A DNA stretch of 64,000 nt from the NCBI GenBank assembly GCA_016278615.1, contig JADQBM010000067.1, positions 7,143 to 71,142 of the forward strand, read 5' to 3'. The position numbers and the translations under genes are program-made. The stretch is from Clostridia bacterium (lineage in GTDB: Bacteria > Bacillota > Clostridia > Peptostreptococcales > JAAYPU01). The notes below the pieces were generated by a model that worked only from the letters and a program-made list of their open reading frames with translations, did no database searches and was not told the DNA's origin. Positions 3,702 through 45,718 of this stretch are shown one piece after another. Each line of letters begins with the position of its first letter. Positions within the stretch are counted from its first letter, which is position 1.

Positions 3702-3983
3702 TTATTCATTCAATCCCTTGCTATATTTTTTTTCATTTTTATCCCATTCAAACATAAACTTCACTATTGCAACTAAGGATACTCCGAAAAACACGCAAAA
3801 ATACGTTGGCAAATAATAGGCAAACGAATATGTGCTAGGAGAATTGTATAAAAGCACACTTCCCATTACAACCCCTATTAGCGCAAAGGTCCCTGCTAAT
3901 CCACCATGTTTCAGTACATACTTTAGCTTTCCTTCTTGCCTTTTCACTTCCCATGTTAAAATAAATTGTTTATGATCTTTCAA
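3702..3983 (-). CDS. Small two-TM membrane protein, unknown function
   Basis: 93-aa ORF with a TTG start preceded by GGAGGGG (5-nt spacer). Two hydrophobic helices (LAGTFALIGVVMGSVLLY and YFCVFFGVSLVAIV). Confidence 0.5.
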   Translation of the reverse strand: MKDHKQFILTWEVKRQEGKLKYVLKHGGLAGTFALIGVVMGSVLLYNSPSTYSFAYYLPTYFCVFFGVSLVAIVKFMFEWDKNEKKYSKGLNE

Positions 3984-4072
3984 CTTGACCCCTCCAAAAT
4001 AATTTGATGAGATTATGCCTTCATCTATTAAAAACTCTTTATATTATATCATAGGGTCTTGATAGATCTTTA

Positions 4073-4162
4073 TTAATTTAATTCTAGCACCATTAAATAA
4101 TCGTCTCCTTTTTCAGCTAGAATTTCAAACCCTATCTTCTTATACATTCCCACGGCATAATT
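4073..4162 (-). pseudogene. C-terminal remnant of a GNAT acetyltransferase
   Basis: A 29-codon minus-strand frame reads NYAVGMYKKIGFEILAEKGDDYLMVLELN-stop. This matches the typical GNAT C-terminal A-x-G-x-Y-x-K-x-GF motif. An in-frame stop sits directly upstream, so no N-terminal part remains. Confidence 0.4.
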
Positions 4163-4210
4163 CTATTTATCTAAGTCAGAAAACGAGCCAAATATACTAG
4201 ATGGTCTCTT

Positions 4211-4681
4211 CTATTTTATGTGTATTAAATATAGCACCCCATCACTTTTAGTAACCTCGAAGTTTAAACTGTTCTCTAAATGAAGCATGGTAGCGACATT
4301 CTTATAATTCTCACCCGAAAAAACGATACTATATTTGTTGCTTGTAGGATATCCATATATATAACAAACCACTTTCCCATCCTTTAAAAAAACTATTTGA
4401 TTCATTCCCTCACTAACGGTTTCTTTAATATTGTCCCATTTATAACCTACAACATCATATATCTTATCTTTAGGTGTATATGGGTCAAATGAATATACTA
4501 CATCCCATTCAAATGGTGTTATCTCTGTTAAATCAATTGTTTCAACGGTTTCCTCAATTGATAATACCTCATTTTTTAATAACTTTGCATTTGAATCCCA
4601 CAATTCTTTCTTGAACTGGCTAATTAAAATGACAACCCCTATTATGCTAATGATTACAATCATTACTTTTTTAACCTTCAT
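4211..4681 (-). CDS. N-terminally membrane-anchored protein, unknown function
   Basis: The ORF track gives 4211..4723. The internal Met (MKVKKVMIVIISIIGVVILI) has a GGAGGA RBS at 7 nt, so I prefer a start at 4681. One TM helix followed by a soluble domain. It lies directly downstream of the MutS-related gene and is probably co-transcribed. Confidence 0.55.
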   Translation of the reverse strand: MKVKKVMIVIISIIGVVILISQFKKELWDSNAKLLKNEVLSIEETVETIDLTEITPFEWDVVYSFDPYTPKDKIYDVVGYKWDNIKETVSEGMNQIVFLKDGKVVCYIYGYPTSNKYSIVFSGENYKNVATMLHLENSLNFEVTKSDGVLYLIHIK

Positions 4682-4737
4682 GTCAATATCCTCCAGTTCC
4701 ACCTTCTCTATTTCTTCATTCACATCTTAAATAAAAA

Positions 4738-6534
4738 TTAATCTATCCCTATCATCTTCATAAGATATAAAGCATTCCTTGTTGTAGAAATACCTTCTCT
4801 TAGTTGGTAATCAAAACGAATTTCGTTATCCTTATAATATTCTTGAAAATGATAATTTTTAATTGTATTCTTGCTTTCTCTTTCTAAAACCCCTAACTCA
4901 AGGTCATGGGTTGATACAAGACCTATATATCCCTTGCCCTGTAGTTGTTTGACTAACTTTTTTGCACCTATATGTCGATCATAAGAGTTCGTCCCTTTGA
5001 GTATTTCATCTAGGATAAAGAATACTTGTATATCCTCCTCAGTAGCTTTCACTATTTCTTTAATTCTTAATAGTTCTCCATAAAATGAGGATATACCTTT
5101 CTCAAGATTATCACTTATTCTCATGCATGTATGGATGCTAAAAAGTGAGCATATCATGGATCTCGCACAAACTGGCGCTCCTGCATAGGCAAGTACGAGA
5201 TTGATGCCTATTGTTCTCAGAAAAGTGCTCTTTCCAGACATATTAGAGCCAGTTATTAACAATATTTGTAAAGAGTCCTGAATATTTACATCATTACAAA
5301 CTTGTCTATTTGTGAGCAAGGGGTGCCCTATTTCCTTGGCTTGAAGCAATGAAGGTTTCTCAGTAATTTGTGGCATTGTCCAGTTTGGGTAATCGTATGC
5401 TATAGTCCCAAAACTAGAGAGTGCTTCAATCTCACCTATCTTTTGTAACCATTCCTCAAGTATTAATCCAGACTCTCTTTTCCACCGTTCCAGTTCAATT
5501 AAGCATTGATAATCCCATAGAAAAATCACATTAATGAGAAGAAAGATCATATTGTTTCTGTTTTCAATCCTACCAACCAATATCTCTAGTCTTTTCAATT
5601 GTTGTGGAGCGGATAAGCCTTTATTGTTGAATAACCCATCACTTAATTCCCTAAGATATCTAGATCTAAAGTTTACTTTTTCAAGGTTCCCCAGTATCCT
5701 TTTGTATACTTTAATACTCTTCTTGTACTTATAAACTTGGGTAAACTCCCAATTCCTTTTTTTTAGATTAATAGTAAGGAGCATGAATTGAAAAATAATT
5801 AGTAATAATGGAATCCCTTCTATGATGATATGCGCTACAAAAGCTAATAGAAAGGTACTTATTGTGATAATAGGCAACACACGAAATATTCCAATCATAA
5901 AAACACGACAATATAATGGTTGTTTCGTTTTAGCCCAGTTTATTAAAGCTTCAATATTGACACTCTTTTCGTCAAGCATTCTTCCTTCTACCTGAAGTTT
6001 ATGTCTTAACCATCGCTTAGTCGATAATTCACTGATTGCTTCCTGCCTTTTAATGATTGTCTCTTTATCTTTATATGGCTGTTTCAAGATATTTGAGAGC
6101 CTAACTCTTCCCATATAAGTATTCGCAGAATTAATCCACTGAAAGAGAGATCCTTGTCCAAAAATATCAAGGTCATAGGAGAACTTGTGTTTTTCATCTA
6201 TAAAATCTTCTCCACTATCTTTAAACTCAGTCCATCTACCTTCTAACCTCTTAATAGAATCAACATTTACATCTATAAGGATAGATATATACTTATGTGC
6301 TTCTCTGAGTTTCCTATGTCTTATAACCAGGTAGCTAAACAATAGCATCCACAGCAATGAAATGCTCCCAGTAATCAGCTGTCCTCCTAAACTGCTTGCA
6401 AAGATTAAGGTAACAATTAAAGCTCCTGCAGTTACCAATCTTAGCAGGCTAATAACATTCATATTTTTTGACACCTTATCTAATAATCGTCCATAATATC
6501 GGACTCTTCTTTTGTATATCTTCATGGAATCCAT
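4738..6534 (-). CDS. Membrane-associated MutS-related ATPase (MutS domain V only, no mismatch-binding domain)
   Basis: 598-aa ORF. Walker A LITGSNMSGKSTFLRTIG, a DEILKGT Walker B-like motif and the STHDLEL motif of the MutS ABC-type ATPase. Two hydrophobic helices near the N-terminus and two more near residues 200-250. Confidence 0.8.
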   Translation of the reverse strand: MDSMKIYKRRVRYYGRLLDKVSKNMNVISLLRLVTAGALIVTLIFASSLGGQLITGSISLLWMLLFSYLVIRHRKLREAHKYISILIDVNVDSIKRLEGRWTEFKDSGEDFIDEKHKFSYDLDIFGQGSLFQWINSANTYMGRVRLSNILKQPYKDKETIIKRQEAISELSTKRWLRHKLQVEGRMLDEKSVNIEALINWAKTKQPLYCRVFMIGIFRVLPIITISTFLLAFVAHIIIEGIPLLLIIFQFMLLTINLKKRNWEFTQVYKYKKSIKVYKRILGNLEKVNFRSRYLRELSDGLFNNKGLSAPQQLKRLEILVGRIENRNNMIFLLINVIFLWDYQCLIELERWKRESGLILEEWLQKIGEIEALSSFGTIAYDYPNWTMPQITEKPSLLQAKEIGHPLLTNRQVCNDVNIQDSLQILLITGSNMSGKSTFLRTIGINLVLAYAGAPVCARSMICSLFSIHTCMRISDNLEKGISSFYGELLRIKEIVKATEEDIQVFFILDEILKGTNSYDRHIGAKKLVKQLQGKGYIGLVSTHDLELGVLERESKNTIKNYHFQEYYKDNEIRFDYQLREGISTTRNALYLMKMIGID

Positions 6535-6884
6535 TGAATTCTTAGCTCCTTAAGTCATTAATACTATATTGATAGAATCTTTCATCCTTATTTAATCCAA
6601 CCCTTAGGTAAAGCCCTTAGGCACACTATACCAAATTATTCCATATTATCATATCATAAAATGAATGCTTCTGGTGTACTATAAGGATTCAAACTCAGTT
6701 AAAGTCGCTTGCAACTTATTATCTCTTTAACTGTCGGTTTTTATTTTAGTAAAACGAAACGTCCCCGAAGAACCTTTGATATTACCTTCAAAAGGTGAAA
6801 TCTCATCCTATCTATTATCAAATAGGTATTGTCATAATTTTAAATTGGTGTTGAAAAAAATTTTAAAATTAAATATTATTTGAG

Positions 6885-7353
6885 TTGAGAAAAAGATTGG
6901 GGGATGATTGTACTTTGGAAGAATTATATAATATGATTTTTAAAAGAAAGTCCTTTATAAGATTTGATGACACTTTAACCCTTTCAGAAAATGAGTTAAA
7001 GGATATAGATCAAAAAATTAAAAACTTATTTCCTCTTGTAAACATAGAAATAAGATGGAAATTGTTCCAAGAGAAAAAACTACATCTAAACGTGGAGAAT
7101 ACTGTTTGCTTATTTATAGCGAAGAAAAAGAACATTACTTGTTAAATACTGGTTATATGTTTGAACAATTGGATCTATATTTAGCATCAAAGAATATCGG
7201 CGTATGTTGGTATGGAATGGGAAAATTAAAAGAGCCTCAATGCAACAACTTAAAATATGTAATAAAAACTTTTCATTTCAACGAATTCTGAGTCCTGAAA
7301 ATGAGGATTCTAATTTAATTTCTATTGCAACATATGCTTTGGAAAAAAAGTAG
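6885..7353 (+). pseudogene. Frameshifted nitroreductase-family gene
   Basis: Nitroreductase-like pieces occur in three different frames. 6885-7145 has LEELYNMIFKRKSFIRFDD (the RRSIRxF-type motif). 7055-7291 has YCLLIYSEEKEHYLLNTGYMFEQLDLYLASKNIGVCWYG. 7288-7353 has LSPENEDSNLISIATYALEKK-stop. Confidence 0.7.
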
Positions 7354-7361
7354 GATATGTT

Positions 7362-7413
7362 AACCGCAGTTACTTATGATACGTTCACCGTATCGCTATA
7401 AAAGCGTTTTTTT
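7362..7413 (+). terminator. Rho-independent terminator-like element, copy 1 of a repeated terminator module
   Basis: aaccgcagttac, then the gatacgttcaccgtatc hairpin, then gctataaaagcg and a T7 run. It is related to the minus-strand element at 13268-13324. Confidence 0.5.
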
Positions 7414-7519
7414 ATCAAGTTTAAGCAATAGTTCTTAAAATAATTGAACTATCTCGGGACAACGAACCTGTCCCCTTGTCCCTGATATAGTATTGAAGAA
7501 TTGTGAACAGTTTATCGTA

Positions 7520-8239
7520 TTATTGATTACTTTCCTTGCTTTTAATAACCAATCGCAACTTATTGTTTGTATCACAAGTAACCAACGTCAGTGTACGGAC
7601 CTCATTTGTCGTTAATTTCTCTACTTCATCAGGCATTATAGTTAATATTTCATAGACTTCGTAGGTTATTTTTCTGCCAGTCAGATCAGTAAGGTCTATC
7701 AAATCTCCAATTCCAAGCAAATGTAAGCTTCCGAAATGTGCTCCATTTAAATAATTATGTCCAATAACAATTAAGTTTCCTGGTTCATTTGGTTCTGGTC
7801 CACTAAACTTGTTAACTGAAATGTCTAGAAGCTCATAACTCCATTCTGATAACACGGATAAGTTTAAGCCTGTTTTTTCAATTTGTAATTTTGCTATAGG
7901 TGTATACTCAACTTTGGTTTTCTCTATTGGCTTGGAAGGAAGTTGCTGAACCTCAGCAGAATTTATTTCTTCATCATTAGTGTTCTGGGACTCAGATATT
8001 GCCGCAGTATTCTGGGGCTTAGACGTTTCCGTTTTTAGTGCTACCTTTTCAAACTTCTCAAGCAGCAGCTGAGCATTTTTTTGTGCCATTTTACCTTCCA
8101 TATATACTGGATATGCACTACTTATCGCAAGAATTAGTAATATACCACTAATAATGAAAGCCCACGTCTGAAATGTAAAAAAGGCAAGAATATTCTTGCC
8201 CTTTCTATTATTACTATTTTTTTTAGATAAGTTATTCAT
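7520..8239 (-). CDS. Sortase (cysteine transpeptidase)
   Basis: 239-aa ORF with an N-terminal TM anchor. Catalytic His in LIVIGHN, a TLVTCD (TLxTC) active-site motif, and a downstream Arg (KLRLVIKS). The start overlaps the upstream surface-protein gene by 8 nt. Confidence 0.85.
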   Translation of the reverse strand: MNNLSKKNSNNRKGKNILAFFTFQTWAFIISGILLILAISSAYPVYMEGKMAQKNAQLLLEKFEKVALKTETSKPQNTAAISESQNTNDEEINSAEVQQLPSKPIEKTKVEYTPIAKLQIEKTGLNLSVLSEWSYELLDISVNKFSGPEPNEPGNLIVIGHNYLNGAHFGSLHLLGIGDLIDLTDLTGRKITYEVYEILTIMPDEVEKLTTNEVRTLTLVTCDTNNKLRLVIKSKESNQ

Positions 8240-9731
8240 TTAATTTCTTTCTTTTATGTCCAAGTAACATGCCTACACCAGCAAGTATTGCTGCGATACT
8301 TCCAAAAAACATTGCCATGCTATAATCTGTTTTCTGACCTGTTTGTGGTATTACTTCGACTTCTTCATAATTATTAGTAATAGTTGCCATTTCTATCTGA
8401 TCTGCTGCTACCTGTACTGTTCCTTCACCACTAACCGTCCATTCACTACTCAGACCAGTACGATTTTCTGTTACGTTATATTCCCCAGGCACTAGATCTT
8501 CCCATGTATAAGATTCGTCATGAGCAAAGGTTCTGGTTGCTGAGAAATCCTCTGGTCCGGTTACCGTGATCTCAAATGTCGGTAACGTCATATCACCAAT
8601 GTCGCCAGATACAATTTTTTCAACAGTTAATGAACCAACTGGAGTACTGTCAACTGGGGTACTGTCAACTGGAGTACTGTCATCTGAATCACTGTCATCT
8701 GAATCACTGTCATCTGAATCACTGTCATTTGAACCACTGTTATCTGAATCACTGTCATCTGAAGGACTGTATAAATTAGTGATGGTAGTTAAGTGTAGTT
8801 CATTTGCTACCACCTGTACGGCGCCTTCACCACTAACCGTCCATTCACTACTCAGACCTGTCCGATTTTCTGTTACGTTATATTCCCCAGGCACTAGATC
8901 TTCCCATGTATAATATTCGTTATGAGCAAAGGTTCTGGTTGCTGAGAAATCCTCTGGTCCGGTTACCGTAATCTCAAATGTCGGCAACGTCATATCGCCA
9001 ATGTCGCCAGTTACAATTTTTCTAACGGTTAATGAGCTGGATGTCCCTGTAGTTATAGTATTGTTGTCTAATGTAACTGCACCAACCATTGCTAACAACT
9101 GTCCTTTTATTTTCGCACCGGTAGTCGCTGTAATTGATTCCGATGAAAGGATATTCCCTACGAATTCAGAATTTGTCCCTAATGTAGCGGAGCTTCCAAC
9201 GGCCCAGAATATGTTGTTGTAATTAGCACCATTAATGAGCTCAACCTTACTACCTGACATAGTAGTCAGAGTAGACCCAGCTTGCAATATAAAGACAGCA
9301 TTGTTGTTGTTTTGACCATCAAGCGTAAGAGTGCCTGTGATTTGTAACTCCGTAGCTGAACTGTAAACACCAGGTGTTAAGGTTGTTCCACCAAGCTCAG
9401 CGCTGATGGCATTGCTCGTTCTAACAGTAGCATCGTTATATGCGGCTAACAGGTCATTCTTGGCCTGTAGTGCTACAGCATCAGCAATATGTACTTCCCC
9501 ACTCACGATCGCTGGTCCCTGCCCACTGAACACAGTCCCTGGGTGCAAGCCAACATCTCCGTCGATTATTGTGTTTCCCGTATTCGTAATTGTCGAACCT
9601 GCTAACACAGCAAAGCTATCCGCTGTTCCAAGATTCACAGTTGTTTCAATTGCCATACTCACAGGCGTAATCATCATAATTACCAGTAATATTAATAGTG
9701 TTAATGATATCGTTTTATTGAAATTCCTCAT
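8232..9731 (-). CDS. Sortase-anchored surface protein with an N-terminal ice-binding-like (DUF3494) beta-helix, two duplicated Ig-like domains and an SD-rich linker
   Basis: 499-aa ORF with a signal peptide. LGTADSFAVLAGSTITNTGNTIIDGDVGLHPGT is typical of DUF3494/ice-binding-like proteins. Two roughly 90-aa near-identical repeats are present. The linker is SDDSDSDNSGSNDSDSDDSDSDDSDSDDSTPVDSTPVDSTPV. The C-terminal sorting signal is IPQTG (8337-8351), then a hydrophobic helix, then HKRKK. Confidence 0.85.
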   Translation of the reverse strand: MRNFNKTISLTLLILLVIMMITPVSMAIETTVNLGTADSFAVLAGSTITNTGNTIIDGDVGLHPGTVFSGQGPAIVSGEVHIADAVALQAKNDLLAAYNDATVRTSNAISAELGGTTLTPGVYSSATELQITGTLTLDGQNNNNAVFILQAGSTLTTMSGSKVELINGANYNNIFWAVGSSATLGTNSEFVGNILSSESITATTGAKIKGQLLAMVGAVTLDNNTITTGTSSSLTVRKIVTGDIGDMTLPTFEITVTGPEDFSATRTFAHNEYYTWEDLVPGEYNVTENRTGLSSEWTVSGEGAVQVVANELHLTTITNLYSPSDDSDSDNSGSNDSDSDDSDSDDSDSDDSTPVDSTPVDSTPVGSLTVEKIVSGDIGDMTLPTFEITVTGPEDFSATRTFAHDESYTWEDLVPGEYNVTENRTGLSSEWTVSGEGTVQVAADQIEMATITNNYEEVEVIPQTGQKTDYSMAMFFGSIAAILAGVGMLLGHKRKKLNE

Positions 9732-10675
9732 AAATTTACCCTCTCCTCACAAATCTTTCTTCTATATTTTAGTATATGTAACTGGACTTCTAGAATGGCC
9801 CGGCTCTTTATGTGCTTAACGTCGTAATCAGTACTGCTTCTTATCAATATATTTTTCCTGATCTCTTTCTGCATATCAACCTTCTCATCCTACTAGACAT
9901 TACCATTTATTATGCTTTCAATGTTCATACGCTTATTGATACTGTCAATAGCTTAACAGTACCCCAAGCTAGTAATGCATAGACTATCATTGCAATGATA
10001 AGGGCTGGTTCTAAGACTTATTCTGTTTCTATACCCTGGTGTTACAGACGTTCTGAATATACCTTTGAAAGGAGTTAGAAATAGATTTGTAATAGAATAG
10101 ATGATAGAAATAAAGTAACTTGCAGTATTTGCTCCGAGCATCTTAACACGAGCCTGAAATTTATAGATCCTTTTATATGATTAGATTCATCTTATACTTA
10201 AATTTAAAATTTGTCAACAAATATTTCCAATTATTTATGTAACTATATTTTAAATAATTATAATAATAATTATAATACAAATTTTTTTCTATATCGGGCA
10301 TTAATTAGTATGCTTCGACGATTCGTTAACAGTATGCAAACTTAATAAACTGCACTCTAGTAAATAGACGCTCCAATGCTTCTCACTATATCTAAACTGT
10401 AGTATACTATATAATATTTTATTGAATGGCGCGATACTTTAATAACTTAATCGTATATATAATGACACTGGTGACACTGGTTAAAAAGATGGCTGAAGGT
10501 GAAGGTTTGGAGGATGACATATTTATTAAAGTCTATAAAGAGTATTTCTCTTAGGTTTATATTTCTACAGACAGCAAAGCTATTAAAATTTAAAGACAGT
10601 CCACTAATTCACTGTATGGAGGTTCAGAATATAGTTATATGGTAATGCTAAATATGGTAATCTAATTTTTCAAAT

Positions 10676-10712
10676 AAAAAGCTTCCATTGGTATGTTCTC
10701 TGGAAGCTTTTT
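10676..10712 (-). terminator. Bidirectional rho-independent terminator downstream of the isochorismatase-family gene
   Basis: aaaaagcttcca pairs with tggaagcttttt (12-bp stem, 13-nt loop), flanked by A and T runs. Confidence 0.7.
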
Positions 10713-10783
10713 AGCATGAGTCTTCGGAACCATCCCAATGACTCACCCACAACTGATATAAAAGTGTAAAAAAAAAATTCATT

Positions 10784-11380
10784 CTACTCAAACATTTGAT
10801 ATACTTCCTCTACATTTACTACTTCACTTCTTCCAAAACTAAGAAGCTCTAGACCTATTTTCTTCCTTTCAGCATTAAAAGATGCTGTAGTTTCAATTGG
10901 TACAATACAATTATAATTTAAGGAAAAAGCATAGCTACACGTTTCTAATACACAGACATCTGTAGCCGCTCCAACAATTATCAGATTCTTGATATTTTTA
11001 CTTTTCAGTATTTCATCTAATTTGGTATTGAAAAATGCATTCCATCTATTTTTTACAACTAGCTCTTCTCCTTCTCTTGGGGCTAAAGGAGGAATAATTG
11101 CTGCATCTGAAGTGCCTTTAACAAAATGTTTATATTTTTTTACTTCAAATCTCTCATCTAACATTTTCCAATCTCTAAAATCTTCCTCATACTCAGTTTT
11201 GATATTAACAACTAACATTCTATTTTCATTAAAATAATCCTTTAATTTAACCATTGGCGTTACTATATCTTCTTGCTTTGTTACATCAACATTTAACATC
11301 TTTACCAACGATCCATCAGGTGCTCCACCACCATATTGCATATCAATTACTAATAATGCTGTCTCTCCTTTTTTCAACAT
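10784..11380 (-). CDS. Isochorismatase-family cysteine hydrolase
   Basis: 198-aa ORF. ALLVIDMQ at the N-terminus. The catalytic Cys context GAATDVCVLETC is typical of isochorismatase/nicotinamidase-like hydrolases. Confidence 0.8.
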   Translation of the reverse strand: MLKKGETALLVIDMQYGGGAPDGSLVKMLNVDVTKQEDIVTPMVKLKDYFNENRMLVVNIKTEYEEDFRDWKMLDERFEVKKYKHFVKGTSDAAIIPPLAPREGEELVVKNRWNAFFNTKLDEILKSKNIKNLIIVGAATDVCVLETCSYAFSLNYNCIVPIETTASFNAERKKIGLELLSFGRSEVVNVEEVYQMFE

Positions 11381-11553
11381 ACCTAACCTCTCCTTTGTAT
11401 TGTTTAATTACAATAATATTATACTATTTATTCAAAGTGTTTTGTATATAAAGGTGACTTCAACTGTTTATAATCTCACTAAGATACTGATGACTACATT
11501 ATCTCTTTTGCGAATTAAAGTATAATTGTGGCATTAGATTGAATGTGTGGATG

Positions 11554-32905: not shown

Positions 32906-33271
32906 ATATACACCTCCTACTATTGCTATTTATATAAAGATTGAAATTCCAAAAACATTGCTTAGTTATTATACCTTTGAAAAATAATGCTGTCAATAAA
33001 GATGTCCAAGAATTATCATGAAACAATGTTAAATTTTTTAATCCAAAATATTCACTTTTGTAAATACACCAAGATGTTGATATGTTTAAAAGTTATTAAC
33101 AAGATGTTGATAACTTTCGGGATAGTTAAACTTTTTTGATTTTTTTTATAAATTTGTTTTAGATTTCTGTGGATAACATGCTATAATGTTAGTACTGATT
33201 TTTACTTTTATACTTTTTTTCCACTGTTTTTTTTTACTATTTTTTTCATATAAATCTGTAAGGGGGCAAAC
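32906..33271. other. oriC: oriC, upstream (rpmH-dnaA) part, with DnaA boxes and the dnaA promoter
   Basis: Perfect DnaA box TGTGGATAA at 33168-33176. A 1-mismatch box TGTTGATAA at 33105-33113 and a 2-mismatch box at 33075-33083. The 13-nt repeat CAAGATGTTGATA occurs at 33070 and 33100, 30 bp apart. Gene orientation switches here. Confidence 0.8.
33179..33187 (+). promoter_or_regulatory. Extended -10 element (TGcTATAAT) of a dnaA promoter abutting the perfect DnaA box
   Basis: TGCTATAAT lies 3 nt downstream of TGTGGATAA and about 85 nt upstream of the dnaA ATG. Confidence 0.5.
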
Positions 33272-34615
33272 ATGAACGATCAAATCAATAACATTTGGGA
33301 CAAGGCCTTAAACATTATTAAGCCTGAAATTACAGAAATCAGTTTTAATACATGGATGATCCCAATAAAACCAATTTCTATAAATTTAGAAAAAGAAAAA
33401 ATGACCTTTTCTATATATAGTGATTTTGCAAAAGGAATTATCGAAACGCGGTATTTAAATCTAATACAAAATGCGATTAAACAAGTATCTGGCAAGAACT
33501 ATCAAGTTGTTTGTATATCATCCGAAGGAAATGTACCTACAGATGATTCTCCCATAAATCATTATAACGAAAGTGTAACCGATGATTTATATCTAAATCC
33601 TAAATATATTTTTGAAACTTTTGTAATAGGTAGCAGCAATCGTTTTGCCCATGCAGCTTCTTTAGCTGTCGCAGAAACACCAGCAAAAGCCTATAATCCT
33701 TTATTTATTTATGGTGGTGTTGGATTAGGCAAAACGCATTTAATGCACGCTATTGGCCATTACATAATTAAAAATAATCCAAATTCTAAAGTCCTATATG
33801 TTTCATCAGAAAAATTTACAAACGAATTAATAAACGCAATAAAAGATGATAAAAATCCTGAATTTAGAAATAAGTTCAGAAATATTGATGTTCTACTTAT
33901 AGATGATATTCAATTTATTGCTGGAAAGGAAAGAACTCAAGAAGAATTCTTTCATACCTTTAATACTTTATATGAAGCCAATAAACAAATAATTTTGTCT
34001 AGTGATCGTCCTCCTAAAGAAATTCCTACTCTAGAGGAACGATTAAGATCAAGATTCGAATGGGGTCTCATTGCAGATATTCAAGCACCTGATTATGAAA
34101 CAAGAGTTGCTATTTTGAGAAAGAAAGCAGAAATCGAAGGGATTCAGGTAACCGAGGAATTAACAGAAGTAATAGAGTTTATTGCAGAAAAAATACAATC
34201 TAATATTCGTGAGCTAGAAGGGGCTCTCATTAGAATTGTAGCTTATGCTTCTTTGACCAATAAAGTTATTAATAAACCTTTAGCAAAAGAAGCTTTACAA
34301 GATATATTCTCTTCACAAAATCGTAAAATAACACCAAAACTTGTTAAAGATTGTGTTGCAAAATATTTTAATTTGAAAATCTCTGACCTGGAGTCAAAAA
34401 AAAGATCTCAGAACATTACTTTTCCAAGACATATTGCCATGTATATTTGCAGAGAAATGACCGATTTATCTCTTCCAAAGCTTGGCGAAACTTTTGGAGG
34501 AAGAGATCATACAACTGTACTTCATGCGGTTGAAAAAATATCTAAAGAAAAAAAATTCAACAATAGTTTAAATGAAATATTAAAAAGTATAATAGAAGAT
34601 ATTAAATCTAATTGA
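33272..34615 (+). CDS. dnaA: Chromosomal replication initiator DnaA
   Basis: 447-aa ORF. AAA+ Walker [16 protein letters not shown], Walker B LLIDDIQF, and domain IV HTH ([12 protein letters not shown]). Confidence 0.98.
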
Positions 34616-34786: not shown

Positions 34787-35893
34787 ATGAAAATAATATG
34801 TCAACAACAAGATCTTTCAAAAGCTTTAAATACAGTTCAAAAAGCAATAACAAATAGAACCACTATTCCTATTCTAAAAGGGATTTACTTAGAAGCATTA
34901 CCTGATGGTGTATTAAAACTGGCAGCTTCTGATTTAGATTTAAGCATAGAGAAAAAAATAAATGTAAATACTTTACAAACAGGATCCTTCGTAGTTTCAT
35001 CAAAACTATTTACAGAGATTATAAGAAAACTTCCAGAAGGAGAAATAGAGATTGAATTAATTGATAATACTGTTATGGTTAAAAGTTTCAATTCAGAATT
35101 CACTATTATAAAACAATCTGCTGAAGATTTTCCTGAAATCAATACATCAGAGAATAACAATAACTTAACTTTAAACAAAGAAATATTTAAAAACATGATT
35201 AAACAAACTGCTTTTTCTGCAAGTATAGATGAATCCAGAGGAATCATAGTAGGTGTATTAATTGAATTTGGTAAAGAGTCTATTAATATGGTTGCATTAG
35301 ACGGATTTAGAATGGCCATTCGTAAAGAAAAAATAATAAATACCATTGAAAAGAAGATAATAATACCAGCGAGAATTCTTAATGAAATTTATAAAATATT
35401 GTTAGATCATGAAGATAACGATTTATTAATTTCTATTAATGATAAAAATATTGTATTTAAAATAGATAATACCATTATATCTTCAAGACTTTTAGAAGGG
35501 GAATACATAAATTATAAAGAAATCATTCCAAAAAATTATACAAGCAAGGTGAAATTGAATAAGGAAGAATTATATAGTAGTATAGAAAGAGCTTCTTTAT
35601 TAGCAAGAGAAGGCAAAAATAATTTAATAAAAATAAAAACAGAAGAGAGCAAAATGATTATTACTTCACGTTCAGAAGAAGGAACCGTACATGAAGAAGT
35701 TTATATAGAAAAGGAAGGAGATGTTTTAGAAATAGGTTTTAATTCAAAATACATTCTTGATATATTAAGAAATGTAGACGATGAAGAACTGTATTTTGAA
35801 TTCATCTCAAATGTAAGTCCCTGTTTAATTAGACCTTTGGATGGTTTAAAGTTTGAATACCTATTGTTACCTGTAAGAATATCTATTAGTTGA
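34787..35893 (+). CDS. dnaN: DNA polymerase III beta sliding clamp
   Basis: GAAGGTGA RBS precedes MKIICQQQDLSKALNTVQKAI. The ORF track start at 34769 is upstream of this RBS. 368 aa. C-terminal LLPVRI. Confidence 0.96.
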   Translation: MKIICQQQDLSKALNTVQKAITNRTTIPILKGIYLEALPDGVLKLAASDLDLSIEKKINVNTLQTGSFVVSSKLFTEIIRKLPEGEIEIELIDNTVMVKSFNSEFTIIKQSAEDFPEINTSENNNNLTLNKEIFKNMIKQTAFSASIDESRGIIVGVLIEFGKESINMVALDGFRMAIRKEKIINTIEKKIIIPARILNEIYKILLDHEDNDLLISINDKNIVFKIDNTIISSRLLEGEYINYKEIIPKNYTSKVKLNKEELYSSIERASLLAREGKNNLIKIKTEESKMIITSRSEEGTVHEEVYIEKEGDVLEIGFNSKYILDILRNVDDEELYFEFISNVSPCLIRPLDGLKFEYLLLPVRISIS

Positions 35894-35906
35894 TAGGAGT
35901 GAATGG

Positions 35907-37160
35907 ATGAATATAGTAAAAAGAGATATATCCCAAAAGAGAGCCATAGAGTTAAAGGAAAAAATCAAAGAATATCTATCTAAGAAAGAAAAAATTGATA
36001 AAGGACTAGAAAAAAAAGAAGAAATACTCAAAAGAAAAAAAATAATATTAGATGTTTTAAATGGGACAGAAGAAGACTGGAATGATTACAAATGGCAATT
36101 AAAAAACAGGATTAATAAGGTTGATGTATTAAATAAAATAATTAGTTTATCAGAAGACGAAAAAAAAATATTAAATGATGTCAGTGAAAAATATAGGTGG
36201 GGTATATCCCCATACTATTTAAGCTTAATGAATTTTACAAAAAAATATGGACCCATAAGATTAATGTCCATACCTCTTTTAAATGAAATTAAAGATACAT
36301 ATGGAATGCTTGATCCTATGAGTGAAGAATACACAAACCCAGCCGGTTGCATTACAAGAAGATATCCTGATCGTCTTATTTTAAATGTTACAAATGAATG
36401 TGCCATGTATTGTAGATTTTGCCAAAGAAGAAGAAATATAGGACAACAAGATAAAGTAAAAAGCAAGGATATTATAGATGAGTCTATTGATTATATAAAA
36501 GCAAATGAAGAAATAAGAGATGTATTAATTACTGGTGGAGATGCACTAACCTTGAATGATCAAATTTTAGAAGATATTATTAGCAGGGTAAGAGCAATTG
36601 AACATGTTGAAATTATACGTATAGGAACAAGAACACCGGTTACAATGCCCCAAAGAATTACAAAAGAGCTATGTGACATGTTTAAAAAATACCATCCAAT
36701 GTATATCAATACACATTTCAATCATCCCATGGAAGTAACGGAAGAAGCTAAAAAAGCCTGTGAAATGTTATCAGAAGCAGGGATACCTCTTGGAAATCAA
36801 GCTGTTTTATTAAATGGAATTAATAATAGTCCTCATGTTATGAAATGTTTAAATCAAGAATTATTAAAGTGTAGAGTTAAACCTTATTATATTTTTCATG
36901 CAAAGAGTATCAAAGGGACTTCGCATTTTTCTACATCCATTGAAGATGGATTAGCCATTATGAATAATTTAAGAGGCTTCACTTCAGGAATGGCCATACC
37001 AACATACATTGTTAATGCACCAAAAGGAAAAGGAAAAGTTCCTCTAAATAGCAATAATATTGTTGAAAAAGGTGATGGATACGTTGTTATAAAAACTTGG
37101 GAAGGTGAAAAACTTAAAATAAAGAACCATAACACCATTAATATAAAACAAGTTAAATAA
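35907..37160 (+). CDS. eam: KamA-family radical-SAM/PLP aminomutase with the glutamate 2,3-aminomutase residue signature
   Basis: 417-aa ORF. The CAMYCRFCQRRR CxxxCxxC cluster is at Cys165/169/172. It aligns with Clostridium subterminale lysine 2,3-aminomutase at a constant +40 offset. PLP Lys337 corresponds to K377. Lysine-binding Asp293 and Asp330 are replaced by K333 (codon 36903) and N370 (codon 37014). Confidence 0.7.
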   Translation: MNIVKRDISQKRAIELKEKIKEYLSKKEKIDKGLEKKEEILKRKKIILDVLNGTEEDWNDYKWQLKNRINKVDVLNKIISLSEDEKKILNDVSEKYRWGISPYYLSLMNFTKKYGPIRLMSIPLLNEIKDTYGMLDPMSEEYTNPAGCITRRYPDRLILNVTNECAMYCRFCQRRRNIGQQDKVKSKDIIDESIDYIKANEEIRDVLITGGDALTLNDQILEDIISRVRAIEHVEIIRIGTRTPVTMPQRITKELCDMFKKYHPMYINTHFNHPMEVTEEAKKACEMLSEAGIPLGNQAVLLNGINNSPHVMKCLNQELLKCRVKPYYIFHAKSIKGTSHFSTSIEDGLAIMNNLRGFTSGMAIPTYIVNAPKGKGKVPLNSNNIVEKGDGYVVIKTWEGEKLKIKNHNTINIKQVK

Positions 37161-37187
37161 GAACATTAGAAATTACAATAAATAAGA

Positions 37188-37223
37188 TTTAGAAAAGATT
37201 TAAGAATCTTTTCTAAATTTTTA
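37188..37223 (+). terminator. Rho-independent terminator after the aminomutase gene
   Basis: A 13-bp stem TTTAGAAAAGATT/AATCTTTTCTAAA with loop TAAG, followed by TTTTT. Confidence 0.8.
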
Positions 37224-37251
37224 TGTAATAATTCTATGACAAGGAGAGAAA

Positions 37252-37458
37252 ATGAGAGAAATAAAGATAAGAGAAGAGTTTATAAAATTATTTCAATTAT
37301 TGAAGTACGCAAGTCTTGTTCCCTCTGGTGGAGAAGCAAAATTTGTTATTGATGAAGGTTTGGTTAAAGTGAATGGAATCATTGAAAAACAGAAAGGTAA
37401 AAAAATATATAAAGAAGATATCATTGAGTTTCAAGGAGAAAAAGTTGTAGTAAAATAA
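37252..37458 (+). CDS. yaaA: S4-domain RNA-binding protein YaaA
   Basis: 68-aa ORF directly upstream of recF. The S4-like sequence (GGEAKFVIDEGLVKVNG) matches the conserved Firmicute yaaA position. Confidence 0.85.
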   Translation: MREIKIREEFIKLFQLLKYASLVPSGGEAKFVIDEGLVKVNGIIEKQKGKKIYKEDIIEFQGEKVVVK

Positions 37459-37468
37459 AGGAGTTTAT

Positions 37469-38581
37469 ATGCGCATAAAAAGCTTGTTTATTAATAATTT
37501 TAGAAATTATGATTGTGAAGAAATTAATTTCCATGATAAAGTAAATATTATTATAGGAAACAATGCTCAAGGAAAAACAAATTTACTTGAAGCTTTATAT
37601 ATGATGTCCATGGGTAAATCTTTTAGAACCAATCGGGATCATGATATGATAAGATTTAATGAACAAAAAGCCTTTATAAAAACTTTATGTATAAAAGAAG
37701 ACTCACAACTTAACATAGATATTACATTGGATCAAACCCAAAAAAAAATAATTAAAAAAAATGGTTTAAAGTTAATAAGAAACACGGAAATTTTGAATCA
37801 TATATACATGGTGGTTTTTTCACCAGAAGATCTAAAAATTGTAAAAGAAGGGCCTGAAAAAAGAAGAAATTTTATAAATAGAGAACTTTGTCAAATAAAA
37901 CCTTTGTATTATCATAATTTATATAAATACAGTAAAGTTTTATTACAAAGAAATGCGTTTTTAAAAGATTATAAATATGAAAAGTATGATAAAAACATGT
38001 TAGATGTTTGGAATAAAGAAATCATCCGTTATGGCTTACATCTTGTTAAAAAAAGAAAAGAATTTATAAACAAATTGAATCTATTGAGTCAAGAAATACA
38101 TAAAAATATTACAAATGGTGAAGAAAACATTGAATTATTCTATGAATCTAATGTTTTTCAAAACACAGAAAATTTAATACAAGAAGATATTTATATTAAA
38201 AAATTAGAAGAAAGTATAAAAACAGATTTTTATCGAGGAAATACAAAAATAGGACCACATAAAGATGATATTAGAATCATGGTTAACGATAAAGATGTAA
38301 GATATTTTGGATCGCAAGGACAGCAAAGAACAGCTTCTTTATCCTTAAAGCTCGCTGAGATAAAATTAATATATGAAGAAACAGAAGAAGTTCCCATATT
38401 ACTATTGGATGATGTTTTATCAGAACTTGATAGCTCAAGACAAAAATATTTGATAAATTCCTTAAAAGATGTCCAATTATTTATTACAACAACAGAAATA
38501 AGTGAATTTTTAAAAGAAAGCTTAAAAGAAAACTATATATTTGAAGTGAGCAATGGAAAAGTTAAAAGAGGAGAACTCTAA
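37469..38581 (+). CDS. recF: DNA replication and repair protein RecF
   Basis: 370-aa ORF. Walker A GNNAQGKTNLLEA, the signature GSQGQQRT, and Walker B LLLDDVLSELD. Confidence 0.96.
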   Translation: MRIKSLFINNFRNYDCEEINFHDKVNIIIGNNAQGKTNLLEALYMMSMGKSFRTNRDHDMIRFNEQKAFIKTLCIKEDSQLNIDITLDQTQKKIIKKNGLKLIRNTEILNHIYMVVFSPEDLKIVKEGPEKRRNFINRELCQIKPLYYHNLYKYSKVLLQRNAFLKDYKYEKYDKNMLDVWNKEIIRYGLHLVKKRKEFINKLNLLSQEIHKNITNGEENIELFYESNVFQNTENLIQEDIYIKKLEESIKTDFYRGNTKIGPHKDDIRIMVNDKDVRYFGSQGQQRTASLSLKLAEIKLIYEETEEVPILLLDDVLSELDSSRQKYLINSLKDVQLFITTTEISEFLKESLKENYIFEVSNGKVKRGEL

Positions 38582-38662
38582 TATAGATATAAGAAAATTT
38601 TATAAAAATGTAATTATCCAATAACTGCTTTCCACCATAGTATATTATAAGAGGTGATAAGA

Positions 38663-39343
38663 ATGGCAGTTATTTTAGTCTATAACAATGACACAAATGC
38701 AATAGAAAGGTATCAAAGAAACGAAAACGATATAATGCCTTATGTTTATAACAACAGCCTTACAGTAAATGAATTTAGAGGCTCTTCAAATGCAAATCTT
38801 TTATGGACAGATAAAAGAACCATGGAAACCTGGAGTCGTTTCCGAGATTTTTATGGTGCAGCAATACCAGTAGGTTTTGCTTTTAAGAGAATTTGGGAAG
38901 GTGGACATAGCCCTCAATCTCAACATTATGCTGGAACAGCCTTGGATGTAGGTCAGGCTTTAGCACCGGCACAAAGAAATAGACTGAGACAAAGAGCCAT
39001 TGATTTTGGACTCTGGAGTTATGTGGAACCGGCTTATCTCACCCCAACATGGGTGCATATGGATAAAAGAAATCTGAATCCAGCTTGTGTCAGTGGGTAT
39101 CCTTTATTAAGATTAGGAGATGCAAGTAGTTATGTACTTATTCTCCAAGATGCATTAAATGCTTTGGGGTATACGGGTTCAGGTTTAGATGGTGTTTTTG
39201 GTAGTGGGACTGATGCTGCAGTTAGAAGATTTCAACAATCATTTGGTATTCCTGCTGATGGAATTGTGGGATGCGTTTCTTGGACACTGTTAACTCAATC
39301 AGCCAGAGGTATTGGTCAAACGGCAACAGTTGTAAATCCATAA
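38663..39343 (+). CDS. LAS-type zinc peptidoglycan peptidase (M15-like) fused to a PG_binding_1 domain, no signal peptide
   Basis: GAGGTGA RBS lies 5 nt before MAVILVY. The metal motifs SQHYAGTALDV (HxxGxAxD) and TWVHMD are present. The C-terminal LQDALNALGYTGSGLDGVFGSGTDAAVRRFQQSFGIPADGIVG is a classic peptidoglycan-binding repeat. A hand-counted 100-nt sample is 47% G+C, against 23% in recF. Confidence 0.7.
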   Translation: MAVILVYNNDTNAIERYQRNENDIMPYVYNNSLTVNEFRGSSNANLLWTDKRTMETWSRFRDFYGAAIPVGFAFKRIWEGGHSPQSQHYAGTALDVGQALAPAQRNRLRQRAIDFGLWSYVEPAYLTPTWVHMDKRNLNPACVSGYPLLRLGDASSYVLILQDALNALGYTGSGLDGVFGSGTDAAVRRFQQSFGIPADGIVGCVSWTLLTQSARGIGQTATVVNP

Positions 39344-44101: not shown

Positions 44102-44167
44102 AAATTCTATTTTATTATGAAAAAAAATGGGTATATATTAATTGTCATTACAAGGAGGTTATTTAAA

Positions 44168-44488
44168 ATGACTTTGGAACTAAAAAGTATCTTTAATAAT
44201 CAGTTAAATCAGTGGGTTATTGAGGTTCAAGGTGAGATTGATGTTTTCACAGCAAAAGATTTCAGAGAAGAACTGATTAGAACTTACAATGAAAAACAAG
44301 AAAATATTATTCTTGATTTTGGCAACCTTAATTATCTAGACAGTACGGGTTTAGGTGTCATTATAGGCGCTTATGGGAGAATGAAAGAACAGGGAAAAGA
44401 AATCTCCATTAAGAATGCAAAGTCGAATATATTAAAACTTATGACCATAACGGGTTTGGACAAGATACTAATCAAATCAAATTGTTAG
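44168..44488 (+). CDS. rsbV: Anti-sigma-factor antagonist (STAS; RsbV/SpoIIAA type)
   Basis: AGGAGG RBS precedes MTLELKSIF; the ORF track start at 44117 is upstream. The phosphorylatable-Ser context is NLNYLDSTGLGVIIG. Confidence 0.85.
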   Translation: MTLELKSIFNNQLNQWVIEVQGEIDVFTAKDFREELIRTYNEKQENIILDFGNLNYLDSTGLGVIIGAYGRMKEQGKEISIKNAKSNILKLMTITGLDKILIKSNC

Positions 44489-44522
44489 TAATTTGGTAAA
44501 ACAAACAGAAGGAGAGAAAGAA

Positions 44523-44924
44523 ATGGTCGATTTATTAAAATTCTCTATTCCCGGAAAACCGGATTATGTAGGAGTTGTTCGCTTGGCAGTTTCATCTGTT
44601 GCCAATAGAGCAGGTTTTGATATCGAAGCGATAGAAGATATAAAAGTTGCTGTATCAGAAGCTTGTAACAATGCTATTCTTCATGGAATTCATGAAAATT
44701 GTTGTAATTACGAAGTAGCTTGTTTTTTAGATGAAAAAAAACTAACCATAGTAATTGATGACCAAGGGGAAGGATATAATACCATTGACTACTTGGAGCC
44801 AGATCTAAAACATCCGAAAGAAGGCGGTTTAGGGATTTTTATTATTAAAACTCTCATGGACGAGGTAGAAATAATGTCAGATAAAATAAAAGGGACTACG
44901 ATCAAGATGACAAAATATATTTAA
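44523..44924 (+). CDS. rsbW: Anti-sigma factor serine kinase (RsbW/SpoIIAB type)
   Basis: AAGGAGAG RBS precedes MVDLLKFSIPGKPDYV. HATPase_c N-box (SEACNNAILHG) and G-boxes (DDQGEGY, GGLGIFI). Confidence 0.85.
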   Translation: MVDLLKFSIPGKPDYVGVVRLAVSSVANRAGFDIEAIEDIKVAVSEACNNAILHGIHENCCNYEVACFLDEKKLTIVIDDQGEGYNTIDYLEPDLKHPKEGGLGIFIIKTLMDEVEIMSDKIKGTTIKMTKYI

Positions 44925-44938
44925 TTGAGGGTGTTGTA

Positions 44939-45718
44939 ATGAATATAAGGGATTTGTCTGAAAAAAGCATATCTGACAGTTCAAATGTAGAGTTATTTAT
45001 GAAATACAAAGAAACCAAAGACATAGAAATAAGAAATGAATTAATTCAAAGATATCTCTATATAGCAGATATACTTGTAAAAAAATATGTTAATAAAGGG
45101 ATTGAATATGATGACTTATACCAAGTGGCATCACTTGGATTAATTCAAGCTGTTGAAAGATATGATTTGGGAAAAGGTTTTGAATTTGGAAGCTTTGCAA
45201 CCCCAACTATTTTAGGAGAAATCAAAAGATATTTTAGAGATAAGGGATGGGCGATTCGCGTCCCCAGAAGGTCACAAGAAATATCCCAAAAGCTTCAGAG
45301 CGCAAAAGAAAAACTTTCTCAAGAATTACAACGAACACCAAAGGTATCAGAACTGGCAGTATACTTAGATACCACAGAGGACGAAATTTTGCAAGCCATG
45401 GAGGCCTCATCGGTTTTTGAAATAAACTCCCTTAACCAAAAATATGATAATGATGGAAGTGATAGGGATTTAAAATTAGAGGAAGCTTTAGGGGTAGGAG
45501 ACCATAATTTTAGGAGACTTGAGAACCAGGATATGATAAAAAAGGTTTTAGCATTGATGCCCCATGTAGAAAAAGAAGTTTTTGTACAAAGATTCTTGCA
45601 AGAGAAGACTCAAGGAGAAATTGCAAAAATGATGCAGGTATCACAAATGACTATTTCAAGGATGGAAAAGAAAATCATTAACCGTTTTAAAGATGAGATG
45701 GTAAAGATTGAGATGTGA
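44939..45718 (+). CDS. sigB: Group-3 sigma factor, SigB-like
   Basis: 259-aa ORF. Region 2 FATPTILGEIKRYFRDKGWAIRVPRR and RTPKVSELAVYLD resemble B. subtilis SigB more than SigF. Region 4 HTH is QGEIAKMMQVSQMTISRMEKK. It sits in an rsbV-rsbW-sigB operon. Confidence 0.75.
   Translation: MNIRDLSEKSISDSSNVELFMKYKETKDIEIRNELIQRYLYIADILVKKYVNKGIEYDDLYQVASLGLIQAVERYDLGKGFEFGSFATPTILGEIKRYFRDKGWAIRVPRRSQEISQKLQSAKEKLSQELQRTPKVSELAVYLDTTEDEILQAMEASSVFEINSLNQKYDNDGSDRDLKLEEALGVGDHNFRRLENQDMIKKVLALMPHVEKEVFVQRFLQEKTQGEIAKMMQVSQMTISRMEKKIINRFKDEMVKIEM

Follow-up and report, generated by a model that had tools for sequence, protein, structure and literature searches.

The 64,000-nucleotide stretch of Clostridia bacterium contig JADQBM010000067.1 analysed here (hereafter the window, with positions counted from its first letter) carries on its plus strand the gene order dnaA-dnaN-eam-yaaA(S4_2)-recF-PG_binding-gyrB-gyrA, and our subject is the metabolic gene, eam, that stands between dnaN and yaaA. 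Its product can with confidence be predicted to be a glutamate 2,3-aminomutase (Eam), a curated enzyme family of which it is an unexceptional member, and the comparison of gene orders and trees indicates that the placement of eam is an old, vertically inherited and occasionally lost lineage synteny, atypical both for eam and for the Bacillota origin block. The best joint explanation, to which we give a probability of about 0.75, is that a functional Eam arrived in one old insertion, is co-expressed with dnaA and dnaN, and maintains a solute pool of beta-glutamate. The features that carry this argument are:

33272-34615, plus strand: dnaA, an open reading frame of 447 amino acids (aa) with Pfam DnaA_N, Bac_DnaA and Bac_DnaA_C (matched on the identical locus L001), presumed first gene of the dnaA-dnaN-eam transcription unit
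34787-35893, plus strand: dnaN, DNA polymerase III beta clamp, with Pfam DNA_pol3_beta, DNA_pol3_beta_2 and DNA_pol3_beta_3
35894-35906, plus strand: dnaN-eam spacer of 13 nucleotides (nt) with a GGAG ribosome-binding site (TAGGAGTGAATGG), read from the sequence
35907-37160, plus strand: eam, with an ATG start, 417 aa, an enzyme of the radical S-adenosylmethionine (SAM) type that uses pyridoxal phosphate (PLP)
36399-36422, plus strand: CxxxCxxC codons (C165, C169, C172), for binding of the [4Fe-4S] cluster, from the 2A5H alignment and read in the DNA
36426-36428, plus strand: codon of R174, counterpart of R134, from the 2A5H alignment
36903-36905, plus strand: codon aag of K333, in place of Asp293, first half of the substrate-specificity pair, from the 2A5H alignment and read in the DNA
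37014-37016, plus strand: codon aat of N370, in place of Asp330, second half of the pair, likewise aligned and read
37035-37037, plus strand: codon aaa of K377, the PLP Schiff-base lysine, likewise aligned and read
37184-37224, plus strand: hairpin with 17-nt arms and a 4-nt loop, followed by a T-run
37252-37458, plus strand: yaaA-type gene for an S4-domain RNA-binding protein of 68 aa (Pfam S4_2, E = 1.1e-25), the downstream edge of the eam insertion
37469-38581, plus strand: recF, with Pfam SMC_N, AAA_15 and AAA_23

The sequence-only reading of this DNA had described a KamA-family gene of 417 aa beginning 13 nt after the dnaN stop codon, and both the open reading frame and the spacer were found as described. 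The product matches the Pfam families Radical_SAM and LAM_C, the latter only at positions 2-49 of 127. It passes TIGR04368, the NCBIfam equivalog model for glutamate 2,3-aminomutase, with 652.3 bits against a cut-off of 650, residues 5-406 aligning with model positions 2-403 of 404. It fails the models for lysine 2,3-aminomutase KamA/AblA (TIGR03820, 451.9 bits against 525.4), arginine 2,3-aminomutase (TIGR04468, 396.4 against 600) and EpmB (TIGR03821, 203.2 against 369.3). Homologues at 63-67% identity carry the NCBI name glutamate 2,3-aminomutase, and the orthologue on the Clostridium difficile chromosome aligns in BLASTP at 66% identity over 409 aa with zero gaps.

The only solved relative is the lysine 2,3-aminomutase of Clostridium subterminale (KamA; PDB 2A5H, E = 1.3e-111). 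A HMMER alignment of Eam residues 54-400 with residues 13-360 of this structure runs at a constant offset of +40 from residue 156, the same offset that had earlier been applied by eye, and equates C165, C169 and C172 with the cluster cysteines C125, C129 and C132, R174 with R134, and K377 with K337. The cysteine codons read tgt (36399-36401), tgt (36411-36413) and tgc (36420-36422). Exactly as had been claimed, K333 stands for D293 and N370 for D330, so that both aspartates are replaced. This Lys/Asn pair was reportedly put forward as the signature of glutamate 2,3-aminomutase in the 2007 work of Ruzicka and Frey on the C. difficile enzyme, and its use as a marker of the clade is upheld here. 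K333 and N370 are invariant in 17 of 17 aligned Eam-type proteins (62-81% identity), as are the CxxxCxxC cysteines. In a broader family alignment, in which the 150 best representatives at 50% clustering were joined by KamA, E. coli EpmB, a C. difficile Eam and the window protein, the two specificity positions hold D/D, as in KamA, in 105 sequences, D/E in seven (E. coli EpmB among them) and K/N in nine, these being the window protein, the C. difficile protein and seven top-scoring representatives. Among these best 150, K/N versus D/D parts the top-scoring Eam-type representatives from a lysine-type majority.

Phylogeny gives the same assignment, since the protein groups with C. difficile Eam and not with EpmB or the lysine aminomutases. 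In 200 of 200 neighbour-joining bootstraps, none but K/N sequences fall into the smallest clade that unites the window protein with that of C. difficile; the attachment of the deepest K/N members (45-49% identity) is weaker (110/200). Over the core, the window protein shares 67.8% of its residues with C. difficile Eam, 48.5% with KamA and 26.7% with E. coli EpmB. Genes for EpmB are usually linked to efp or epmA; no efp gene lies within about 8 kb on either side of eam, and a search of the full-text literature by residue name returned nothing relevant.

Activity on L-glutamate is predicted from homology to lysine 2,3-aminomutase. A [4Fe-4S] cluster on C165, C169 and C172 would reductively cleave SAM to give a 5'-deoxyadenosyl radical, which would take the C3 hydrogen from L-glutamate bound as an external aldimine to PLP, the cofactor that K377 carries while the enzyme is at rest. 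The amino group would then move from C2 to C3, yielding beta-glutamate (3-aminoglutarate). R174 would hold the alpha-carboxylate of the substrate, and K333 with N370 would bind its gamma-carboxylate where, in lysine 2,3-aminomutase, two aspartates bind the lysine epsilon-ammonium.

The arrangement dnaN-eam-yaaA belongs to a clade of uncultured Anaerovoracaceae, anaerobes of gut and sediment, whose members are given here by locus number. We scanned 80 eam loci (one genome per species, with an Eam alignment as query) with the DnaA, DnaN, YaaA, RecF and GyrB proteins of the window, and found the arrangement only in the two closest, L007 (Eam 82% identical), which is a metagenome-assembled genome (MAG) labelled Anaerovorax odorimutans, and L008 (81%). 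Contig look-ups of close Eam homologues placed it also in L002 (74%), L003-L005 (81%) and L006 (75%). A DnaN-anchored protein search with contig look-ups, made to avoid ascertainment through eam, recovered it in L095 (DnaN 70% identical) and recovered relatives without eam in L094 (DnaN 73%), L090 (66%), L096 (65%), L091 (62%), L092 (62%) and L093 (59%, Anoxybacterium hadale); a DnaN-anchored scan of metagenome contigs gave two loci only, neither useful. Six species-level lineages thus carry dnaN-eam-yaaA, namely the window, L002, L003-L005 with L008, L006, L007 and L095, and they are six of the eight lineages of the clade.

A neighbour-joining species tree of DnaA, DnaN and RecF (1171 columns) has the form ((((window,(L007,(L003,L008))),L094),((L006,L095),L091)),L002), with L090 and L096 outside; the clade as a whole has a support of 492/500, its inner eight members one of 500/500. 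The eam-less L094 and L091 are nested within the eam-bearing clade, and L090, L096, L092 and L093 are eam-less outgroups. As the sequence-only reading had supposed, eam is an insertion at the dnaN/yaaA-recF junction, for in the outgroups dnaN is directly followed by yaaA or recF; the uninterrupted order dnaN-yaaA-recF occurs in L090, L096, L091 and L094. Its further suggestion that the placement is unusual survives in part: the site is atypical for eam and for the origin block, but it is neither recent nor unique, given its presence in most lineages of the clade, which goes most of the way to one of the refutations that the reading itself had named. The dnaN-linked Eam proteins are monophyletic in 200 of 200 bootstraps and 74-82% identical to the window protein, and all Eam proteins outside this group are at most 67% identical to it. 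This monophyly argues for a single old insertion. Between dnaN and eam, the window, L006, L007 and L095 have 13 nt, L003 and L008 have 19 nt and L002 has 138 nt. The GC content of eam (27-32%) is the same as that of its flanks, and neither direct nor inverted repeats flank the gene, which argues that eam is not a recent mobile insertion; the divergence of Eam also parallels that of DnaA, DnaN and GyrB.

The junctions that lack eam lie at L094:2885-2958 and L091:6105-6138, and that of L094, with a hairpin directly after dnaN, represents either a clean loss or the state before insertion. L091 has an IS21-family element (IstB-like ATPase and rve/Mu-type transposase; L091:7872-10191) 3' of recF, and is rearranged upstream of dnaA, with MaoC dehydratase, glnA, rpsF and ssb in place of rpmH-rnpA.

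The downstream end of eam bears on how the gene was accommodated. Inverted repeat arms at 37184-37200 and 37205-37221 (17 nt, 94% complementary, 4-nt loop) are followed by the T-run, and for the 91 nt between eam and yaaA the folding energy is -21 kcal/mol (z = -4.97), a value that 0 of 200 shuffles reached. A consensus terminator scan, which demands three G-C pairs, did not detect the hairpin because its AT-rich stem has too few of them. The hairpin core GAAAAGAT...ATCTTTTC with its Ts follows eam in the window, L003, L006, L007 and L008, and the same core lies about 25 nt past the dnaN stop in the eam-less L094; eam therefore lies between dnaN and a pre-existing terminator, and not in front of one of its own. 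No good hairpin follows eam in L002 (14-nt eam-yaaA spacer) or L095 (37 nt). The sequence-only reading had given eam its own strong terminator: the hairpin is real and conserved, 'strong' is generous, and the attribution to eam does not stand. The hairpin probably serves the dnaA-dnaN(-eam) unit as its intrinsic terminator and would descend from a dnaN terminator older than the insertion. We propose that eam was inserted once, in the ancestor of one Anaerovoracaceae clade, exactly between the dnaN stop codon and the terminator of the dnaN operon, and that it would since have been inherited vertically and lost in at least two lineages (L094 and L091).

This architecture leads to a proposal about expression. 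The 13-nt spacer is too short for a terminator or an independent promoter, and eam lacks a riboswitch, a promoter region or a spacer that it could call its own. It is likely to be the last cistron of the dnaA-dnaN transcript; judged from gene anatomy, co-transcription with dnaN is the most likely arrangement. The transcript would end at 37184-37224, and eam would be expressed in step with growth at an origin-proximal level, and not from a stress-induced promoter. A scan for promoter-like sites was uninformative, such sites being no commoner than in shuffled sequence (39 found against 42 expected).

Elsewhere the setting of eam is of another kind. In 72 other genome loci, including those of Tepidibacter, C. 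difficile, Paraclostridium, Romboutsia, Lacrimispora, Hungatella, Peptococcia and Izemoplasmatales, no replication gene lies within 8 kb of eam, and the gene nearly always follows a spacer of 130-780 nt or a divergent gene, often with a convergent gene after it. This indicates that outside the dnaN-linked clade eam is typically a monocistronic gene with its own control region, and that tight upstream coupling is therefore specific to that clade; among the loci examined, an upstream gene within 13-20 nt of eam occurs nowhere else. Clustering of neighbours over 85 loci found no conserved functional partner beside eam, the commonest neighbour being present in 15 loci, and the recurrent neighbours (hypF/hypD/hypE, an AI-2E transporter, a CitMHS transporter and a glyoxalase-like protein) are lineage-specific. 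No riboswitch or RNA leader was found by Rfam, at the gathering threshold, upstream of eam in eight diverse loci.

Several of these loci have features of their own. In 14 loci of Lacrimispora, Hungatella and related MAGs (L014-L018, L021, L027, L028, L030, L035, L038, L046, L049 and L068), eam lies about 145 nt downstream of hypE on the same strand, usually with hypF and hypD farther upstream, which is another lineage-specific placement behind an unrelated operon. In a Tepidibacter sp. an RNase P RNA gene (L010:9302-9642) lies about 65 nt after eam, and in Alkalithermobacter a raiA RNA (L031:7584-7787), encoded on the other strand, is found some 215 nt upstream of eam.

One further genome, the Aminipila sp. 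MAG L026 (NZ_DAMBYD010000009.1; Anaerovoracaceae), has eam within its dnaA-gyrA block at a different site. In that locus the order runs from dnaA, dnaN and recF through the genes listed here to gyrB and gyrA:

3713-11455: the part of the block around eam
4842-5411: extracytoplasmic function (ECF) sigma factor
5380-6150: DUF4367 protein
6215-6808: putative lipoprotein
7152-7700: GNAT acetyltransferase
7986-9251: eam

At no other locus does a homologue of the GNAT gene adjoin eam. A single ancestral acquisition in the origin region, shared with Aminipila, was rejected, because the L026 Eam is sister to the dnaN-linked clade in 0 of 200 bootstraps; by neighbour-joining it is nearest to Lachnospiraceae sequences. 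L026 therefore suggests that eam entered this block of about 10 kb a second time, independently, an observation made post hoc that would also fit chance: given one such context, a rough post-hoc estimate, not a computed value, puts the chance of another in that block at about 5%. Together with the 13-20 nt coupling found only in the dnaN-linked clade, this independent case allows the reading that placement of eam in the replication-initiation block was selected and not accidental, which we regard as improbable. Were it so, eam would be carried on a DnaA-autoregulated transcript from the origin, the part of the chromosome with the highest gene dosage; the production of beta-glutamate would then scale with replication initiation and growth rate, and chromosome replication would be hard-wired to the pool of an anionic solute that serves as counter-ion to potassium.

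The physiological step of our explanation is its least certain. We consider it most likely, in preference to a catabolic role, that the beta-glutamate made by Eam would be kept as a basal pool of an anionic compatible solute that is metabolically inert. As a compatible solute, beta-glutamate is metabolically static (PMC1224877). Na+ riboswitches occasionally control eam (PMC9337991), the gene is stress-induced in Moorella (PMC7835215), and a 2022 paper, as cited by the preprint 10.1101/2025.11.21.689712, concerns archaeal Eam in salt tolerance. A Pfam survey of the other open reading frames of at least 100 aa in the window found no beta-glutamate-related genes. Loss of eam in L094 and L091 suggests that the gene is dispensable.

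Several points weigh against this combined explanation. The margin by which the protein passes TIGR04368 is just about 2 bits, and all trees are simple neighbour-joining trees. One gain with two losses makes the same number of events as three gains, so that the preference for one gain, although it seems the best reading, rests on the monophyly of the Eam proteins. The operon architecture is not uniform, L002 having the 138-nt spacer and no hairpin and L095 no good hairpin, and a weak internal promoter may lie inside dnaN. Constitutive, replication-linked expression is unexpected for an osmotically regulated solute gene, and the host belongs to an amino-acid-fermenting family, which makes a catabolic role a live alternative.

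Among the other explanations, those that deny the identity or the reality of the insertion carry least weight. The protein shares 48.5% of its core with C. subterminale KamA and some sources name its orthologues 'lysine 2,3-aminomutase', so it might be a lysine 2,3-aminomutase (KamA/AblA), an EpmB-type EF-P modification enzyme or an arginine 2,3-aminomutase that has been mislabelled through two substitutions; this is very improbable, since it scores below the cut-offs of TIGR03820, TIGR03821 and TIGR04468, it has neither of the aspartates that bind lysine, every bootstrap groups it with C. difficile Eam, its identity to E. coli EpmB is low and efp is not nearby. That eam appears at this site through faulty assembly, or as a mobile cassette that arrived recently, is scarcely credible: the relatives are mostly MAGs, but the same arrangement has been assembled independently in NCBI, Logan, ENA and JGI data, and the matching base composition, the lack of flanking repeats and the parallel divergence of Eam and of DnaA, DnaN and GyrB all speak against it.

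Two other alternatives deserve more attention. Transcription of eam from a promoter in the 3' end of dnaN, with adjacency reflecting a neutral landing site and no regulatory coupling, is in our judgement unlikely. There are promoter-like hexamers in the 3' region of dnaN (for example at 35549-35578, with 9/12 matches) and the long spacer of L002 could accommodate a promoter; against this, promoter-like sites are no commoner than in shuffled sequence, spacing of 13-19 nt with a ribosome-binding site has been kept in five lineages, and no terminator separates dnaN from eam. We attach a similarly low probability to Eam being the first step of glutamate (or beta-glutamate) catabolism or fermentation, the site in a housekeeping operon then reflecting a constitutive catabolic function. 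Anaerovoracaceae such as Anaerovorax and Aminipila ferment amino acids and amines, and eam here has no salt-responsive leader. A preprint (10.1101/2025.11.21.689712) holds that bacterial Eam serves glutamate fermentation, but it also marks the glutaconate ammonia lyase as never reported in the literature. Genes for CoA-transferase, ammonia-lyase and glutaconyl-CoA decarboxylase are not conserved beside eam in the 85 loci and none occurs in the window, and eam has been lost in nested relatives. A co-transcribed Eam that supplies a solute pool remains our preferred reading.

The system has analogues that differ from it in instructive ways. The biochemically characterised glutamate 2,3-aminomutase of C. 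difficile (Ruzicka and Frey 2007, Biochim Biophys Acta 1774:286, as cited in PMC11284099 and PMC7835215) resembles the window protein in its gapless alignment, a conserved N-terminal extension of about 50 residues, the CxxxCxxC motif, the PLP lysine, the K/N pair and membership of TIGR04368; its gene is nevertheless far from dnaA, dnaN, recF and gyrB and has an upstream spacer of about 390-400 nt in place of 13. C. subterminale KamA shares the fold family, the cluster cysteines, R134 and K337, and presumably the radical SAM/PLP chemistry of a 1,2-amino shift, but has D293/D330 in place of K333/N370 and lacks the N-terminal extension, which measures about 40 residues against this enzyme, and it is the window protein that matches LAM_C only at positions 2-49 of 127 and scores below the cut-off of the lysine model. 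The AblA/AblB system of methanogens and some bacteria, which makes N-epsilon-acetyl-beta-lysine, likewise couples a KamA-family aminomutase to a beta-amino-acid compatible solute (PMC1224877, PMC9337991). It is, however, a salt-induced two-gene operon in which a lysine 2,3-aminomutase is paired with a beta-lysine acetyltransferase, and the eam of the window has neither an acetyltransferase partner nor a stress-responsive leader; a GNAT gene upstream of eam, recalling AblA/AblB, occurs only in the unrelated Aminipila locus. The canonical Bacillota order dnaA-dnaN-yaaA-recF-(remB)-gyrB-gyrA is present in the window with all its genes in sequence, but with eam added between dnaN and yaaA and a PG_binding_1 protein between recF and gyrB.

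The remainder of the window is a typical Bacillota origin region, with rpmH-rnpA-yidC-jag-mnmE-mnmG on the minus strand and parA/parB/noc, rsmG, spoIIAA-AB-sigF, trpS, mscS, ssb, gdpP, rplI, dnaB and purA. The sign of the GC skew switches near 33-35 kb, and a single perfect DnaA box, TTATCCACA, lies at 33168-33176 upstream of dnaA; over the whole window, 9-mers resembling the DnaA box show no enrichment, with 20 matches where 23 were expected, and Rfam at the gathering threshold gave no match (no tRNA, rRNA or riboswitch). The mechanical open reading frame of dnaN begins at GTG 34769 (374 aa), but ATG 34787 (MKIICQQQ...), which gives 368 aa, is probably the true start because DnaN in all relatives is about 367-372 aa long.

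The protein between recF and gyrB (38654-39343, plus strand; 229 aa) has a C-terminal PG_binding_1 domain and an N-terminal 160 residues without Pfam assignment. It occupies the interval where many Bacillota carry remB/yaaB, its gene has a GC content of about 37% against 25-30% in its neighbours, and it is kept in relatives, including the eam-less L090 and L094; a minus-strand terminator-like hairpin lies just 3' of it at 39409-39385. Directly 3' of gyrA (44117-45718, plus strand) are spoIIAA (STAS), spoIIAB (HATPase_c_2) and a gene for a sigF-like sigma factor, an origin-proximal forespore sigma-factor operon found after gyrA also in L002, L003 and L006. At 7520-9731 on the minus strand, a 499-aa protein with an Ice_binding-like domain and DUF5979/DUF7601 adjoins a sortase gene and is probably a sortase-anchored surface protein.

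This is mostly an annotation result, in that the protein can now be named as a glutamate 2,3-aminomutase. It places a known enzyme in an odd, inherited context, and nothing suggests a new kind of system or changes the understanding of replication or of radical SAM chemistry. What it adds is that dnaA-dnaN-yaaA-recF, among the most conserved gene orders of Bacillota, can take a metabolic gene exactly between a stop codon and a terminator, keep it over several species-level lineages and then, in some of them, shed it cleanly. For deciding between a solute and a catabolic role of bacterial Eam, sister lineages with and without the gene, such as the window clade and L094, in a clade where eam has no regulatory region to itself, would provide a convenient comparison.

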